A DNA stretch of 11,612 nucleotides from a virus. Location: UHGV virus genome UHGV-1980575, one strand, 5' to 3'. Positions within the stretch are counted from its first letter, which is position 1. The number at the start of each line of letters is the position of its first letter. The notes under the pieces were generated by a model. It worked only from the letters and a program-made list of their open reading frames with translations. It was not told the origin of the DNA and ran no database searches. Both the position numbers and the translations under genes were made by a program. Shown here in pieces: positions 3,040 to 11,612 of this stretch.

Positions 3040-3690
3040 ATGAAAACTCAATTGATGGGAGAGCGCATTCGCGCTCGGAGAAAAGAACTCAAGATCAGGC
3101 AGGCCGCACTTGGAAAAATGGTCGGCGTGTCTAATGTTGCCATATCTCAGTGGGAACGCTCTGAGACAGAGCCAAATGGAGAGAATCTTCTCGCCCTGGC
3201 TAATGCGTTGAAGTGTTCCCCTGACTATCTGATGAAAGGAGAGGAAAGTCTTTCAAACATTGCCTATCACAGTAGGCATGATCCAAGAGGGTCATACCCT
3301 CTGATTAGCTGGGTGAGCGCAGGATGCTGGATGGAAGCTGTAGAACCATATCATAAGCGTGCAATAGATAACTGGTACGATACAACCGTAGACTGTTCAG
3401 AAGATTCGTTTTGGTTGGACGTGAAGGGAGACTCAATGACGGCTCCGGCCGGTCTCAGTATCCCTGAAGGAATGATAATACTCGTCGATCCTGAAGTAGA
3501 GCCGCGTAACGGGAAACTGGTAGTTGCAAAGCTCGAAGGAGAAAACGAGGCAACTTTCAAGAAGTTAGTTATTGATGCAGGCAGGAAGTTTCTAAAACCA
3601 CTTAACCCACAATATCCGATGATCGAGATCAACGGAAACTGCAAAATCATCGGCGTAGTTGTCGATGCAAAACTAGCAAACCTTCCATAA
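3040..3690 (+). CDS. c2: Prophage repressor CI (P22 C2-like; LexA/S24 autocleaving family)
   Basis: 216 aa with N-terminal HTH (QAALGKMVGVSNVAISQWE), Ala94-Gly95 (VSAGCW) as putative RecA-stimulated cleavage site, and a GDSM serine motif with downstream lysines. From memory near-identical to P22 C2. Confidence 0.9.
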   Translation: MKTQLMGERIRARRKELKIRQAALGKMVGVSNVAISQWERSETEPNGENLLALANALKCSPDYLMKGEESLSNIAYHSRHDPRGSYPLISWVSAGCWMEAVEPYHKRAIDNWYDTTVDCSEDSFWLDVKGDSMTAPAGLSIPEGMIILVDPEVEPRNGKLVVAKLEGENEATFKKLVIDAGRKFLKPLNPQYPMIEINGNCKIIGVVVDAKLANLP

Positions 3691-3755: not shown

Positions 3756-3809
3756 ATTTAAGTTTTCTTCAAAAATACTCTTGACCATTAATTAAAGAGA
3801 TCTTAAATT
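3756..3809 (+). promoter_or_regulatory. Left operator and candidate PL
   Basis: 18-bp palindrome ATTAAAGAGATCTTAAAT (3791-3808) of the same family as OR1-3, plus a weaker copy ATTTAAGTTTTCTTCAAA (3756-3773). Plus-strand -35 TTGACC (3781-3786), 17-bp spacer, -10 TAAATT (3804-3809), overlapped by the operator. Confidence 0.5.
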
Positions 3810-3854
3810 TAAGCCATCAGCAGGACGCTGGAAGCCAAACGGAACAGATTGGCA

Positions 3855-3896
3855 GGCTCTTTAACATTGATGGGGTTGTCCCGCCGAAATGCGGGA
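3855..3896 (+). promoter_or_regulatory. nutL (boxA plus boxB) on the leftward transcript
   Basis: GGCTCTTTAACA (3855-3866), 12-nt spacer, hairpin TCCCGC-CGAAAT-GCGGGA (3879-3896). Same boxB and same spacing as nutR. Confidence 0.6.
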
Positions 3897-4207
3897 ACCA
3901 AAGAGTAGTTGGCTTTGGGGTGACGTGAAGTGCAGCTGCACGACGGCAACCGGAAGATAAGCACCCGGCGCGTCACCGCCAAAGTCAATTCCATGGGCGA
4001 AATGCAGCCGCCAAACACAGCCAATGCTGCACATGCAACAGGAGGATTTATGTGAATGCATAACTTCAAAACCGAGGTTAATTAAATCTCTCGATCCGAG
4101 CATCGACCTATTAGTTGGCGAGATGCTCTTTCTGCCCCTCAATTCGAGGGGCCAGAAACCACTTTGCAATCACTATCAATTCCAAAGTTGTTTCATCGGA
4201 GGTCAAC

Positions 4208-4507
4208 ATGACAGTAGTCATTACATATCTGGCTGACGATAACGCCAGAAATCGCCGCAGAGCACGCAGACAGGCTCAACGTGAACAGGCAATGCAAGAG
4301 CAGCGACTGGCGCAAAAAATTGCGCTAAAGCTCTCTGGTTGCGTCAGAGCAGACAAAGCAGCATCACTCGGAAGCCTTCGCTGCAAGAAGGCAGAAGAAG
4401 TCTATCATAAACAGAATCGTATTTACTACCGCAAGCCACGCAGTGAAATGGGTGTGACTTGTGTTGGTCGCCAGAAAATGAAATTAGGCAGCAAACCACT
4501 TATTTGA
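4208..4507 (+). CDS. N-like antitermination protein (99 aa) with N-terminal arginine-rich motif
   Basis: MTVVITYLADDNARNRRRARRQAQREQ... gives an ARM within the first 25 residues, as in lambda N. GGAGG is 5 nt upstream of the ATG at 4208. First gene downstream of PL and nutL. Confidence 0.7.
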   Translation: MTVVITYLADDNARNRRRARRQAQREQAMQEQRLAQKIALKLSGCVRADKAASLGSLRCKKAEEVYHKQNRIYYRKPRSEMGVTCVGRQKMKLGSKPLI

Positions 4508-4515
4508 GGTGAGAT

Positions 4516-4986
4516 ATGACAAAATCATGGAGCGTACCTTTTTCTGAATCAGAAACTGAACATGATGGAATGCCTGTTTTCTGGAGATTCCAGGCGACAG
4601 TTGAAGAAGATGGGATAAAAATATTCGCACTTCAATATATAGCTTTTCATCAGACAGAGCATTATGCATGGTTGGTTCCTGCGCATTGGATTGTTAATTT
4701 TAAACCAGCACCAAATCAGTGGTTACAGGAATGGAAACAAAGGAGAAATAGATATGCAATTAAGAAAGTAGCAAAAAATGCAGAAAGATCTTTTGCATTC
4801 CCAACGAAGAAACTTGCTATTGAAAGTTTATTGCGCCGGAAGAAATACCATTTAATGAGAATAAAACAAGATTTGGCTGTTGTATCAACTCTTGTTGATG
4901 GGATGAAAAATATTGATACATCAACACCAGATATTGAATATAACTTTGGACACAACCAAGAAACAGAAAATTGGGTATTTTATTAG
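4516..4986 (+). CDS. Hypothetical protein (156 aa), AT-rich orphan gene in the N-cIII accessory slot
   Basis: GAGGTGAG is 2 nt upstream of the ATG, directly after the N stop. Codon composition is visibly far more AT-rich than the flanking genes. No family recognised. Confidence 0.55.
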   Translation: MTKSWSVPFSESETEHDGMPVFWRFQATVEEDGIKIFALQYIAFHQTEHYAWLVPAHWIVNFKPAPNQWLQEWKQRRNRYAIKKVAKNAERSFAFPTKKLAIESLLRRKKYHLMRIKQDLAVVSTLVDGMKNIDTSTPDIEYNFGHNQETENWVFY

Positions 4987-5017
4987 TACGAATAAGCACT
5001 GTGTATTCATTCCAACG

Positions 5018-5129
5018 NNNNNNNNNNNNNNNNNNNNNNNNNNNNNNNNNNNNNNNNNNNNNNNNNNNNNNNNNNNNNNNNNNNNNNNNNNNNNNNNNNN
5101 NNNNNNNNNNNNNNNNNNNNNNNNNNNNN
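5018..5129. other. Assembly gap (run of 112 N)
   Basis: Literal n characters in the sequence; every ORF crossing it in the six-frame track is an artefact. Confidence 0.99.
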
Positions 5130-5178
5130 GCTTCACTTGAGGCGTTTTCGTTATGCAATCAAACAGAAGGAGCATCCT

Positions 5179-5349
5179 ATGCAACAGTTCGCTATTGCAG
5201 GGGCGGCATCGGTTCGCCCTTTCAACCCAATTTTATCGGTGCAGCATTCACGAAAAAACATTTTAACCGGAGCAGACTTTAAACAACCAAGAATGAAAAG
5301 TTTGCTCGAAAAGCTTTGGGATATTTTGAAACAACAAGGCCGTCCATGA
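5179..5349 (+). CDS. cIII: CIII-like protein (56 aa), putative FtsH inhibitor
   Basis: MQQFAIAG... N-terminus and SLLEKLWDILKQQGRP C-terminus parallel lambda CIII (MQYAIAG... RLIDILNQPGVP). AAGGAG is 6 nt upstream of the ATG at 5179. Confidence 0.65.
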   Translation: MQQFAIAGAASVRPFNPILSVQHSRKNILTGADFKQPRMKSLLEKLWDILKQQGRP

Positions 5350-5504
5350 GTTTTACAGATAACTGGTCAGACGAAGAATTCATTCGTCAGATGAAAGAAT
5401 TAATCGGCAACGAAGGAGATATTCATGTCACTTGCAACCACAGTGAAGGAGAGCAAGTTACAGAGGCGCATGTACACGCAGAAAGCTCTCTGGTATCGCC
5501 ATAA
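5346..5504 (+). CDS. Small acidic hypothetical protein (52 aa) in the position lambda kil occupies
   Basis: Start overlaps the cIII stop (ATGA at 5346-5349), suggesting translational coupling. The call rests on position alone; I do not recognise the sequence. Confidence 0.4.
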   Translation: MSFTDNWSDEEFIRQMKELIGNEGDIHVTCNHSEGEQVTEAHVHAESSLVSP

Positions 5505-5603
5505 TGGCGACCGCGAAGGAATGCGGGTATGCCTTAATTTGTCCCGAGTCGAAGTATTAAATCAGCGTTATTTCCTTGGGCCGTGTCCATTCTGAGGTGA
5601 ATT

Positions 5604-6311
5604 ATGGATTTGAACAAATTCGATGAGCCATTCAGCCCTGAAGATATCGAATGGCGAATACAGCAAAGCGGTAAAACACGCGATGGCAAGGTGTGGGCTA
5701 TGGTGCTGGCTTATGTCACGAACAGGGCAATCATGAAACGCCTGGACGATGTTTGCGGCAAAGCAGGATGGCGCAATGAATACCGCGATATTCCCAACAA
5801 CGGCGGAGTTGAATGCGGCATATCAATCAAGATTGATTCCGAATGGGTAACCAAATGGGATGCTGCTGAAAACACGCAGGTAGAAGCCGTCAAAGGTGGT
5901 CGTTCCGGTGCAATGAAGCGTGCTGCCGTTCAGTGGGGAATCGGTCGGTATCTGTATAACCTTGAGGAAGGTTTCGCACAAACATCTCTCGATAAAAAGC
6001 AGGGATGGCACAGGGCAAAACTGAAAGATGGAACAGGATTTTACTGGTCCCCTCCATCGCTGCCGGGATGGGCAATGCCAGCATCTGGCAATCAACCATC
6101 ACCAGAAAATACCAACCAGAAATCTCCATCGGTTGACTGCGAACAAATCCTGAAAGACTTCAGTGATTATGCTTCGACAGAAACTGACAAGAAAAAACTC
6201 ATAGAACGTTATCAGCATGACTGGCAATTAATGGCTGGCAATGAGGATGCGCAGGCTAAATGCGTTCAGGTAATGAACATCAGAGTTAACGAACTAAAAC
6301 AGGCGGCATAA
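5604..6311 (+). CDS. Single-strand annealing recombinase (Rad52/Erf-like superfamily)
   Basis: 235 aa; the N-terminal core (YVTNRAIMKRLDDVCGKAGWRNEY, GVECGISI) resembles Rad52-fold annealing proteins. Sits in the bet/erf position immediately upstream of ssb. GAGGTG upstream of the ATG. Confidence 0.65.
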   Translation: MDLNKFDEPFSPEDIEWRIQQSGKTRDGKVWAMVLAYVTNRAIMKRLDDVCGKAGWRNEYRDIPNNGGVECGISIKIDSEWVTKWDAAENTQVEAVKGGRSGAMKRAAVQWGIGRYLYNLEEGFAQTSLDKKQGWHRAKLKDGTGFYWSPPSLPGWAMPASGNQPSPENTNQKSPSVDCEQILKDFSDYASTETDKKKLIERYQHDWQLMAGNEDAQAKCVQVMNIRVNELKQAA

Positions 6312-9891: not shown

Positions 9892-10092
9892 ATGCAACAC
9901 GAACTACAACCTGATTCACTGGTTGATTTGAAATTCATCATGGCTGATACTGGCTTTGGTAAAACCTTCATCTACGACCGGATTAAGTCCGGCGACCTGC
10001 CTAAAGCCAAAGTTATCCACGGTCGAGCAAGATGGTTATATCGTGACCATTGTGAATTCAAAAATAAGCTCTTAAGCCGCGCCAATGGGTAA
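9892..10092 (+). CDS. torI: AlpA/TorI-family excisionase (recombination directionality factor, 66 aa)
   Basis: Winged-helix AlpA-type pattern (FIMADTGFGKTFIYDRIKSGDLPKAKVIHGRARWLYRDHCEFKNKL). Length and position next to an argW-like att core match TorI of the KplE1 (CPS-53) prophage; the sequence itself is not remembered, so the symbol rests on context. Confidence 0.65.
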   Translation: MQHELQPDSLVDLKFIMADTGFGKTFIYDRIKSGDLPKAKVIHGRARWLYRDHCEFKNKLLSRANG

Positions 10093-10165
10093 AATAGCGG
10101 GTAAAATATTTCTCACACCTAAAAAACACCATTCTAATCAATCCCCTGCTGCTTCAAGTAGATGT

Positions 10166-10180
10166 CTGCAGGGGACACCA
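10166..10180 (+). other. Candidate attR core: 15-nt match to the 3' end of tRNA-Arg (argW)
   Basis: CTGCAGGGGACACCA has the form of a tRNA 3' terminus (T-stem 3' strand, acceptor 3' strand, discriminator, CCA) and matches the argW 3' end as I recall it. No complete tRNA lies upstream, so this is a duplicated core, not a gene. Confidence 0.5.
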
Positions 10181-10619
10181 GATACCCTTCAAACGATATC
10201 TACCTTCACCCCGTAAAAGATAAGTTTGGCAGCACATTTGCCCTATCTACTCATTTTTCCTGCAACAGGTTGAAATCTCAACACGGTCAGAAAACGCTGA
10301 TGACTAAACAGCCCTGGGCTGGGCGATGTAACCATCACACACAATCCTGATCGCGAAATATGGCGTGACTTGATACTTCACTCCACAATGCTTTCCTTGA
10401 TGAATTCGCAGGCCCGTGATACACGGGACAGGTCGCTGAATTACGACAATGCCCTGGAAATCAGCGAGCCGTGTATCCGGAGTACATTTGAGCGACTGTA
10501 CCAGAACATGAATGAGGCGTTTGGATTAGGCGATTATTAGCAGGGCTAAGCATTTTGGTATTATTATTTTCCGGTTGAGGGATATAGAGCTATCGACAAC
10601 AACCGGAAAAAGTTTACGT

Positions 10620-11612
10620 TTATATTGCTGAAGGTACTGGCGTTTCCATCACTATTTGCTCACGTTTTTTACTCAGGAAGAAAATGCCAAATAGCAACAT
10701 CAGGCAGACAATACCCGAAATTGCGAAAAAAACCGTCTGGTAGCCTGCGTGGTCAAAGAGTATCCCAGTCGGCGTTGAAAGCAGCACAATCCCCAACGAA
10801 CTGGCAATTTGAAAACCAATCAGAAAGATCGTCGACGACAGGCGCTTATCAAAATTTGCCACGCTGTATTTGAAGACGGATATGACACAAAGTGGAACCT
10901 CAATGGCATGTAACAGCTTCACTAATGAAATAATCCAGGGGTTAACGAATAGCGCGCAGGAAAGGATACGCAACGCCATAATCACAACACCGATAAGTAA
11001 TGCATTTTTTGGCCCTACCCGATTCACAAAGAAAGGAATAATCGCCATGCACAGCGCTTCGAGTACCACCTGGAATGAGTTGAGATAACCATACAGGCGC
11101 GTTCCTACATCGTGTGATTCGAATAAACCTGCATAAAAGACAGGAAAGAGTTGTTGATCAAAAATGTTATAGAAAGACCACGTCCCCACAATAAATATGA
11201 CGAAAACCCAGAAGTTTCGATCCTTGAAAACTGCGATAAAATCCTCTTTTTTTACCCCTCCCACATCCGCCGCTACGCACTGGTGTTCCTGATCTTTAAA
11301 ACGCATGTTGATCATCATAAATACAGCGCCAAATAGAGAGACCAACCAGAAGTTGATATGGGGACTGATACTAAAAAATATGCCAGCAAAGAATGCGCCA
11401 ATAGCATAGCCAAAAGATCCCCAGGCGCGCGCTGTTCCATATTCGAAATGAAAATTTCGCGCCATTTTTTCGGTGAAGCTGTCAAGCAAACCGCATCCCG
11501 CCAGATACCCCAGACCAAAAAAGAGCGCACCCAGAATTAAACCTACAGAAAAATTGCTTTGCAGTAACGGTTCATAAACGGTCCGGTCAAGACCAAGATG
11601 AAACTCATACAC
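10620..11612 (-). CDS. cscB: LacY-family oligosaccharide:H+ symporter (MFS), host gene, N-terminus cut by the window edge; probably sucrose permease
   Basis: About 50 percent similar to LacY across the visible 330 aa (FNRVGPKNALLIG vs LacY INRIGGKNALLLA; FEYGTARAWG vs FEFGRARMFG). Context next to an argW att core fits the csc locus of sucrose-positive E. coli. Symbol is context-based. Confidence 0.6.
   Translation of the reverse strand: MYEFHLGLDRTVYEPLLQSNFSVGLILGALFFGLGYLAGCGLLDSFTEKMARNFHFEYGTARAWGSFGYAIGAFFAGIFFSISPHINFWLVSLFGAVFMMINMRFKDQEHQCVAADVGGVKKEDFIAVFKDRNFWVFVIFIVGTWSFYNIFDQQLFPVFYAGLFESHDVGTRLYGYLNSFQVVLEALCMAIIPFFVNRVGPKNALLIGVVIMALRILSCALFVNPWIISLVKLLHAIEVPLCVISVFKYSVANFDKRLSSTIFLIGFQIASSLGIVLLSTPTGILFDHAGYQTVFFAISGIVCLMLLFGIFFLSKKREQIVMETPVPSAI

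Follow-up and report, generated by a model that had tools for sequence, protein, structure and literature searches.

In phage lambda the segment PL-N-tL1 gives the N-independent immediate-early leftward transcript, and ral lies beyond tL1. The gene discussed here has described counterparts in HK97 (gp45, AAF31125), 933W (ST933Wp19, NP_049479) and phi24B (vb_24B_11c, ADN68407): the encoded protein and its length are the same as in our locus, and in all of them the gene stands directly after N and is followed by a hairpin-terminator. In this sense it is an ordinary sequence feature, which has been in GenBank for years as HK97 gene 45 and as an ORF of 933W. The N allele in front of it differs, however: our locus has an N of 99 aa and an 8-nt spacer, while HK97 and 933W have an N of 127 aa and a 58-nt spacer.

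Looking for the 156-aa protein in the literature under its accessions, locus tags, peptide strings and gene names gave unrelated matches only and no relevant paper. Silas et al. (bioRxiv 10.1101/2023.04.06.535777) described orf184, a trigger of gop-beta-cII from an accessory region that also includes ral. We considered orf184 as a candidate for the 156-aa protein, but the orf184 model begins MEALVVERSEDGYW and it is therefore a different protein. The 200-gene table of the accessory-gene screen in the same work contains no match to three peptide strings of the 156-aa protein.

The locus and the family of the 156-aa gene

The window, by which we mean the whole analyzed stretch of 11,612 nt (UHGV virus genome UHGV-1980575), comprises the immunity and early-left region of a lambdoid prophage of P22/CUS-3-like type. 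At the DNA level it best matches E. coli prophages and the Lederbergvirus vB_EcoP-611R6, with 95-97% identity and in mosaic pieces. The features are as follows.

3040-3690, plus strand in the gene order: cI/LexA-like repressor gene
3781-3809, plus strand: PL-like sigma-70 promoter candidate, TTGACC-17-TAAATT, downstream of the cI terminator (pattern scan, consensus match only)
4124-4152, plus strand: putative nutL, boxA-like TGCTCTTT followed by a boxB-like hairpin GCCCCTC-AATTC-GAGGGGC (regular-expression search of the window)
4208-4507, plus strand: N-like antiterminator gene, 99 aa, with the arginine-rich motif NARNRRRARRQ (phrog_271, "anti-termination protein N-like", E 2.9e-35)
4506-4512, plus strand: Shine-Dalgarno sequence GAGGTGA of the 156-aa ORF, overlapping the N stop codon TGA at 4505-4507
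4516-4986, plus strand: 156-aa gene of the HK97 gp45 / 933W p19 / phrog_1636 family (full-length profile match)
5001-5017, plus strand: part of hairpin 1, namely the left arm GTGTATTCATTC, the loop CAAC and the first base of the right arm; the remaining right arm falls in the N-run
5018-5129, no strand: N-run of 112 nt, content inferred by homology
5130-5178, plus strand: cIII leader with a weak terminator-like hairpin GCTTCACTTGAGGC + GTTTTCG and the cIII ribosome binding site, kept in relatives
5179-5349, plus strand: cIII gene, 56 aa (phrog_550, E 1e-22)
5346-5504 and 5425-5595: two small PHROG-family ORFs of 52 and 56 aa labeled "recombinase", in overlapping frames after cIII
Further downstream: genes for a Rad52-like annealing protein, SSB, a 3'-5' exonuclease, Abc2 (anti-RecBCD), Ead/Ea22 and DUF551
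10620-11612, minus strand: host LacY-type MFS gene

The putative nutL is assigned by analogy, as it lies upstream of N like the annotated nutL of 933W and phi24B. The two ORFs after cIII match PHROG families 2123 and 1723, whose "recombinase" label looks to be carried over from the annotation of neighboring genes and not to denote a real function. The early-left operon ends in small ORFs (9892-10540) and is directly followed by the LacY-type MFS transporter gene, with no integrase gene between the two in the window. In the related ATCC 11775 prophage torI is the last phage gene, followed by host dsdC.

The earlier note on this DNA had pointed to a 156-aa ORF after N with a good ribosome binding site and a much higher AT content than its neighbors, and both observations hold. 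The ORF starts with ATG at 4516 and stops with TAG at 4984-4986, and the Shine-Dalgarno sequence ends 3 nt upstream of the start codon. Its GC content is 35.0% and its GC3 25.5%, compared to 43-50% GC and 44-59% GC3 in the neighboring genes (GC is 48.2% in N, 43.5% in cIII, 46.9% in cI and 46.2% over the entire window). The AT-richness is common to the family, with the homologue lying 2-11 GC points under its own locus in six of six distant loci.

The further claim of the note, that the ORF is an orphan of no assignable family, was overturned. Residues 1-156 of the protein align to positions 1-156 of the 156-position profile of phrog_1636 (E 2.8e-111; PHROG function "unknown"), and amino acid identity to the proteins of HK97, 933W, phi24B, BP-4795 and Min27 is 98.7-99.4% (98.7% to HK97 gp45, 99.4% to that of 933W). 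By this comparison the gene is almost certainly HK97 gene 45 / 933W ST933Wp19 / phi24B vb_24B_11c, a lambdoid early-left accessory gene of phrog_1636, and HK97 and 933W, syntenic with the window after N, have the order N, 156-aa gene, terminator, cIII. What stood after the profile and structure checks is that no library or literature searched assigns the protein a function. Neither Pfam, NCBIfam nor PADLOC gave more than chance-level matches to the protein and to 41-47 family members; among the defense models of PADLOC-DB v2 the best was Cas1_II at E 0.0033 (7 of 47 members; E 0.018 and 12 bits for the window protein). Profile searches of PDB sequences with the 156-aa protein returned nothing under E 0.1. 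The sequence family, judging from these searches, is already known: it is catalogued, common and uncharacterized.

The gene occurs in 83 of 50,697 phage records (tblastn), in 79 of the 83 at 95% identity or more. The carriers include HK97, where it is annotated as Gp45, 933W, H-19B, phi24B, BP-4795, Min27 and many Stx1a- and Stx2a-converting phages. It was also found by megablast in 598 of 5,426 complete E. coli genomes, in up to four copies per genome; since this amounts to about 11% of the genomes, the "orphan" label is wrong and should be dropped. These frequencies, and the presence of sieB or other genes in its stead in Sakai prophages, mark the gene as accessory. Close homologues with 54-84% identity are present in Pectobacterium, Cronobacter, Brenneria, Rosenbergiella and Symbiopectobacterium, and a profile search of 1.84 billion representative proteins retrieved 88 relatives at E <= 1e-3, mostly of 130-155 aa and about 20-27% identity. 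All relatives tested belong to phrog_1636, phrog_13631 or phrog_25384, and phrog_1636 is matched by each of the 41 close and distant members tested.

Comparison of seven E. coli and phage alleles gave pN/pS values of 0-0.24, mostly 0.03-0.12, which indicates that the gene is under strong purifying selection. The E. coli protein and its close homologues share 39 invariant columns at identities down to 54%. Together with the low pN/pS this makes the ORF a real gene and no chance ORF. A spurious or decaying ORF without function would have only the missing annotation in its favor, and this explanation can practically be dismissed given 156 codons in DNA of 35% GC, a strong Shine-Dalgarno sequence, the conservation just described and a confident AlphaFold2 fold. 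The earlier note had said that lack of conservation in related prophages would speak against its reading; the gene turned out to be highly conserved there. The window allele carries Ser at codon 10 (4543-4545), a position at which the family nearly always has Pro (at least 90% of 21 sequences). This Ser10 allele is common and not a sequencing error, because the exact window protein is found on 358 contigs, from Enterobacteriaceae.

The N-run and the variable N-cIII slot

The earlier note had placed a 112-nt gap 31 nt past the stop of the ORF, which is accurate (a single N-run, 5018-5129), and had suggested that any partner gene is hidden there. We examined this suggestion with collinear relatives, of which 43 genomes cover at least 80% of a 1.6-kb query. 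Collinear complete genomes (e.g. CUVET21-H2, ATCC 11775, S88 and APEC O1) have exactly N, the 156-aa gene, an intergenic region and cIII, and where the window has 112 N, four collinear relatives (L001, L002, HK97 and phi367) have 114 nt. The left edge of the N-run is continued by AGTGAATACAC in all six relatives compared (L001 to L005 and L015), and one base differs in phi367. In the relatives the stretch supplies the right arm of a perfect 12-bp hairpin, of which the window shows the left arm (5001-5012), and further contains a second hairpin plus an intrinsic terminator. The latter was identified by terminator scans as GCCCTCCARTGTGAGGGC followed by T6, and the HK97 record annotates a "putative terminator" there. 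Five of the six relatives have it, in the case of 933W with an interruption in the T-run that follows the stem; in 611R6 a diverged, weaker hairpin inside an intact 77-aa ORF aligns with the terminator sequence. This ORF (L003, i.e. vB_EcoP-611R6, 3843-4076), the C-terminal half of which matches phrog_15754, persists in L001 as a 31-codon remnant (5936-6031) in the stretch matching the N-run.

From these relatives, the N-run most probably hides the right arm of hairpin 1, the second hairpin, the 31-codon remnant and the terminator, and its sequence would be expected to be about 112-114 nt long and to read AGTGAATACACGGAGCAATGTCGCTCGTAACTAAACAGGAGCCGACTTGTTCTGATTATTGGAAATCTTCTTTGCCCTCCARTGTGAGGGCTTTTTTATATGCATACCAATAAC. 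As 112 nt can accommodate 37 codons at most, the idea of a hidden partner is unsupported, and the collinear relatives have hairpins and a terminator in its place; the N-run, in our reading, hides no gene.

The predicted RNA fold of the 3' region has an energy of -46.3 kcal/mol compared to -27.6 +/- 3.3 for shuffled sequences (z = -5.6). The hairpin-hairpin-terminator unit (L001 5901-6015; HK97, L005, about 3485-3599) is kept nearly base for base in most of the six relatives despite differing flanks. It could act in RNA processing or stability, or give rise to an RNA derived from the 3' UTR. Rfam searches of the window, L001 and L003 stayed below gathering score, the best sub-threshold match being STnc100 with 15 bits against a cutoff of 47 bits. 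Known small RNAs were considered for the hidden region and rejected: AgvB and AsxR map to PR' and the Pas sRNAs to the late region, and of the Sakai Hfq peaks, EcOnc20 falls in the PL leader and EcOnc22 in the tail region. The two Sakai prophages examined, Sp5 and Sp15, do not have the 156-aa gene in the N-cIII slot. EcOnc20 is an Hfq-crosslinking peak (Tree et al. 2014, Table S2). With coordinates compared across genome versions.1 and.2 without correction, it is placed at NC_002695.2 1255628-1255753 (Sakai Sp5, L021), some 330-450 nt ahead of the Sp5 N gene, in the PL leader/nutL region; it is a transcribed leader and not a free-standing sRNA gene. A weak antisense promoter-like match, TACACA-17-TAAAAT (9/12), lies on the minus strand of the window at 5005-4977, overlaps the hairpin and points into the 3' end of the gene. 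It is kept in HK97 (L005 3490-3462) and L001, and the count of such matches in the region does not exceed chance expectation.

The N-cIII interval had been described beforehand as a variable accessory slot, and comparison across phages agrees with this description. In phi367 N is followed by two small ORFs, ral and then the 156-aa gene; 933W and phi24B have N, the 156-aa gene, an ea10/ssb-like gene and cIII; 611R6 has N, the 156-aa gene, the 77-aa ORF and cIII. Sakai Sp15 has N, sieB on the opposite strand and ssb, and Sakai Sp5 has N, a gene for an 83-aa hypothetical protein and ssb. The 156-aa gene with about 95 nt of 3' structure occurs beside two N alleles and various downstream genes. Because it stands next to two different N alleles, we regard the gene and its 3' hairpin-hairpin-terminator as a mobile cassette.

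Expression, predicted structure and possible roles

Promoters and terminators were called by simple consensus scans, which are blind to Rho-dependent terminators and weak promoters. Within this scope there is no terminator-like site from the PL-like promoter/nutL to the 156-aa gene in the window and in the collinear E. coli prophage L001, and no plus-strand promoter-like site from PL to the ATG at 4516, the PL-like candidate being the sole such site from cI to the ORF. HK97 has one weak terminator-like match with a 5-bp stem in the 3' part of N, which is absent from the annotation of its record. Otherwise the first terminator-like site in the scans of the window, L001 and HK97 is the terminator directly after the 156-aa gene. 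By analogy with lambda, N and the 156-aa gene would form the N-independent immediate-early leftward transcript. As these two genes alone precede the first recognizable terminator, the protein would be made before N-dependent readthrough, and since the gene has no promoter-like site of its own within the repressor-controlled PL operon, a repressed lysogen should not express it. The arrangement of the locus points to very early lytic expression and not to expression in the lysogen.

The protein has a mass of 18.6 kDa, a pI of 9.1, a GRAVY of -0.58, seven Trp and no Cys. Its charge is unevenly distributed: residues 1-60 are acidic (pI 5.1), residues 61-130 very basic (pI 10.9) and the tail 131-156 acidic again. 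No transmembrane segment is expected, since the highest 19-residue Kyte-Doolittle mean is 0.56. An AlphaFold2 model from a shallow Enterobacterales alignment reached a pLDDT of 60.4 and was discarded in favor of one based on 47 aligned sequences including distant relatives, with a pLDDT of 92.9 and a pTM of 0.79. In the latter, residues 19-30, 33-46 and 50-55 form a three-stranded meander; there are also short helices, a fourth strand at 83-86 and a helix of 33 residues (98-130), and the C-terminal tail is ordered but non-regular. The tail is conserved and is predicted to pack back onto the domain. Foldseek found nothing at E <= 1e-3 among 350,542 PDB chains. Against BFVD it gave 12 matches at this threshold, all to uncharacterized phage proteins, including those of lytic Erwinia phage phiEa2809, Achromobacter phage phiAxp-3, Delftia phage RG-2014 and of Rhizobium, Tenacibaculum and Cellulophaga phages.

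Across the 47-sequence alignment only G33, T47, K87, R91, A94, A101, K109 and F155 are invariant. The set includes a Thr and three basic residues but no Asp, Glu or His, and we therefore read it as a binding surface and not as a catalytic site. Such a surface would suit a non-enzymatic protein that binds a phosphate-bearing ligand (nucleic acid or nucleotide), a host protein or an acidic partner.

The surroundings of the distant homologues were inspected in ten loci. In five of them the homologue is placed distally in a leftward early operon, with xis/int one to three genes downstream, and in a sixth (L013) it is nine genes upstream of int. These xis/int-side operons also carry RdgC, orphan C5 or Dam methylases, YopX and once an Acb2/Tad1-hairpin protein. 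Elsewhere the homologue stands alone and in opposite orientation among tail genes (L010) or among unannotated small genes (L018 and L020). In a metagenomic phage (L014 4642-5453) it opens an operon that runs divergently from a gene for a 64-aa Cro-like HTH protein, which would be the place of a repressor or of a first early gene. Neighbors of the distant homologues were tested as tandem paralogues, and no paralogy was found. The theme of the distant loci is early and accessory. Only in the E. coli lambdoids is the gene linked to N, and this speaks against its product being an N cofactor.

The reading we tentatively prefer, as a possibility and not as an established role, is that of a non-enzymatic binding protein made very early for counter-defense or host takeover. 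PL would transcribe the gene together with N, and the protein would appear within the first minutes after infection or induction and be absent from the repressed lysogen. The soluble 18.6-kDa product, acidic and of beta-sheet structure in its N-terminal part, very basic and helical in its center and with a conserved C-terminal tail, would bind a phosphate-bearing ligand or a host protein rather than catalyze a reaction, and would act as a non-essential factor that neutralizes its target in the host as soon as lytic growth begins. The position before the first terminator is consistent with this proposal, and so are the presence of ral immediately upstream in phi367, the sharing of the distant homologues' operons with orphan C5/Dam methylases, RdgC and the Acb2/Tad1-hairpin protein, the structural relatives in lytic phages, and the combination of dispensability with strong purifying selection. 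Against it, the homologue lies near xis/int at the distal end of the operon, and not in an immediate-early position, in six of the ten distant loci; early-left operons are moreover a mixed bag, which makes evidence from the neighborhood weak. In the Foldseek search of the PDB the fold had no significant match to any solved anti-defense protein.

One would argue that the same proximity to xis/int, taken together with the basic center and a weak AP2/Tudor-like resemblance of the predicted fold, fits a nucleic-acid-binding developmental regulator, which would tune early transcription, RNA stability, integration/excision or the lysis-lysogeny decision via this center. We consider such a regulator possible but doubtful, and it and the counter-defense or takeover protein are not mutually exclusive. 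Many phage early accessory genes are toxic on overexpression, and the gene shares the early-left operon with kil and cIII and encodes an early, small, soluble and non-enzymatic protein, so a host-takeover or growth-inhibiting protein of the Kil or Icd type, blocking division, replication or transcription, was also weighed. Nothing specific favors it and the protein has no similarity to Kil or any known inhibitor, and we hold this explanation to be unlikely.

The earlier note had called this the most likely place in the window for an undescribed host-interaction or defense function, which can be read as a prophage function of defense or superinfection exclusion that protects the lysogen. The same slot does hold sieB in Sakai Sp15 and in Salmonella phage VSe13, and the AT-rich, moron-like composition and the frequency of the gene in prophages are in line with this view. 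The gene, however, lies behind N in the PL operon and lacks a promoter-like site of its own, its product has no transmembrane segment, none of 47 family members has a significant PADLOC match, and the structural relatives occur in strictly lytic phages. Lysogen protection is for these reasons very unlikely.

Returning to counter-defense, a bolder version would cover the whole gp45 family, including the relatives in lytic N4-like, Erwinia and marine phages: its members would be very early effectors of a new fold that neutralize a component of host immunity. An example route would be the sequestering of a nucleotide signal or the shielding of nucleic acid via the conserved T47/K87/R91/K109 patch. 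We regard this generalization as rather unlikely; if it were true, gp45 in Shiga-toxin phages would influence which E. coli strains are productively infected or lysogenized.

The gene is among the most widespread uncharacterized genes of the immunity-proximal early region in Shiga-toxin and P22/HK97-like phages. Its importance is modest and lies in an apparent place on the earliest transcript together with N, in strong purifying selection and in a confident predicted fold without a solved relative. Genes of such a profile have repeatedly proved to be counter-defense or takeover factors. Knockout of gp45 followed by a plating study would be a sensible undertaking.

Comparison with Ral, SieB and early anti-defense proteins

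Lambda Ral is the classical occupant of the position after N, and it resembles the 156-aa protein in operon and slot, in early expression and in being a small soluble accessory protein. The two have no sequence relationship, with Ral being about 66 aa long, and no Ral match was obtained for the 156-aa protein in Pfam, PHROG or NCBIfam. Whereas ral is located beyond tL1 in lambda, the 156-aa gene precedes the first terminator. The two genes co-occur in phi367, and thus neither substitutes for the other.

SieB, the lambda/P22 superinfection exclusion protein acting by abortive infection, is the alternative occupant of the slot in Sakai Sp15 and VSe13. It is a membrane protein, often made from its own transcript, and is encoded on the opposite strand in Sp15. 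Contrastingly, the 156-aa protein is predicted to be soluble, its gene is co-oriented with N and has no recognizable promoter, and Pfam and PHROG gave no SieB family match.

The fold has no significant match to Tad1, Tad2, Acb2, Ocr or ArdA, and sequence similarity to Ocr, Tad1, Tad2 and Acb2 was not found. Being basic, the 156-aa protein is no DNA mimic. What it would have in common with Tad1, Tad2, Acb2 and T7 Ocr, the product of the first gene expressed by that phage, is the proposed logic alone: a small non-enzymatic protein made at the start of infection.
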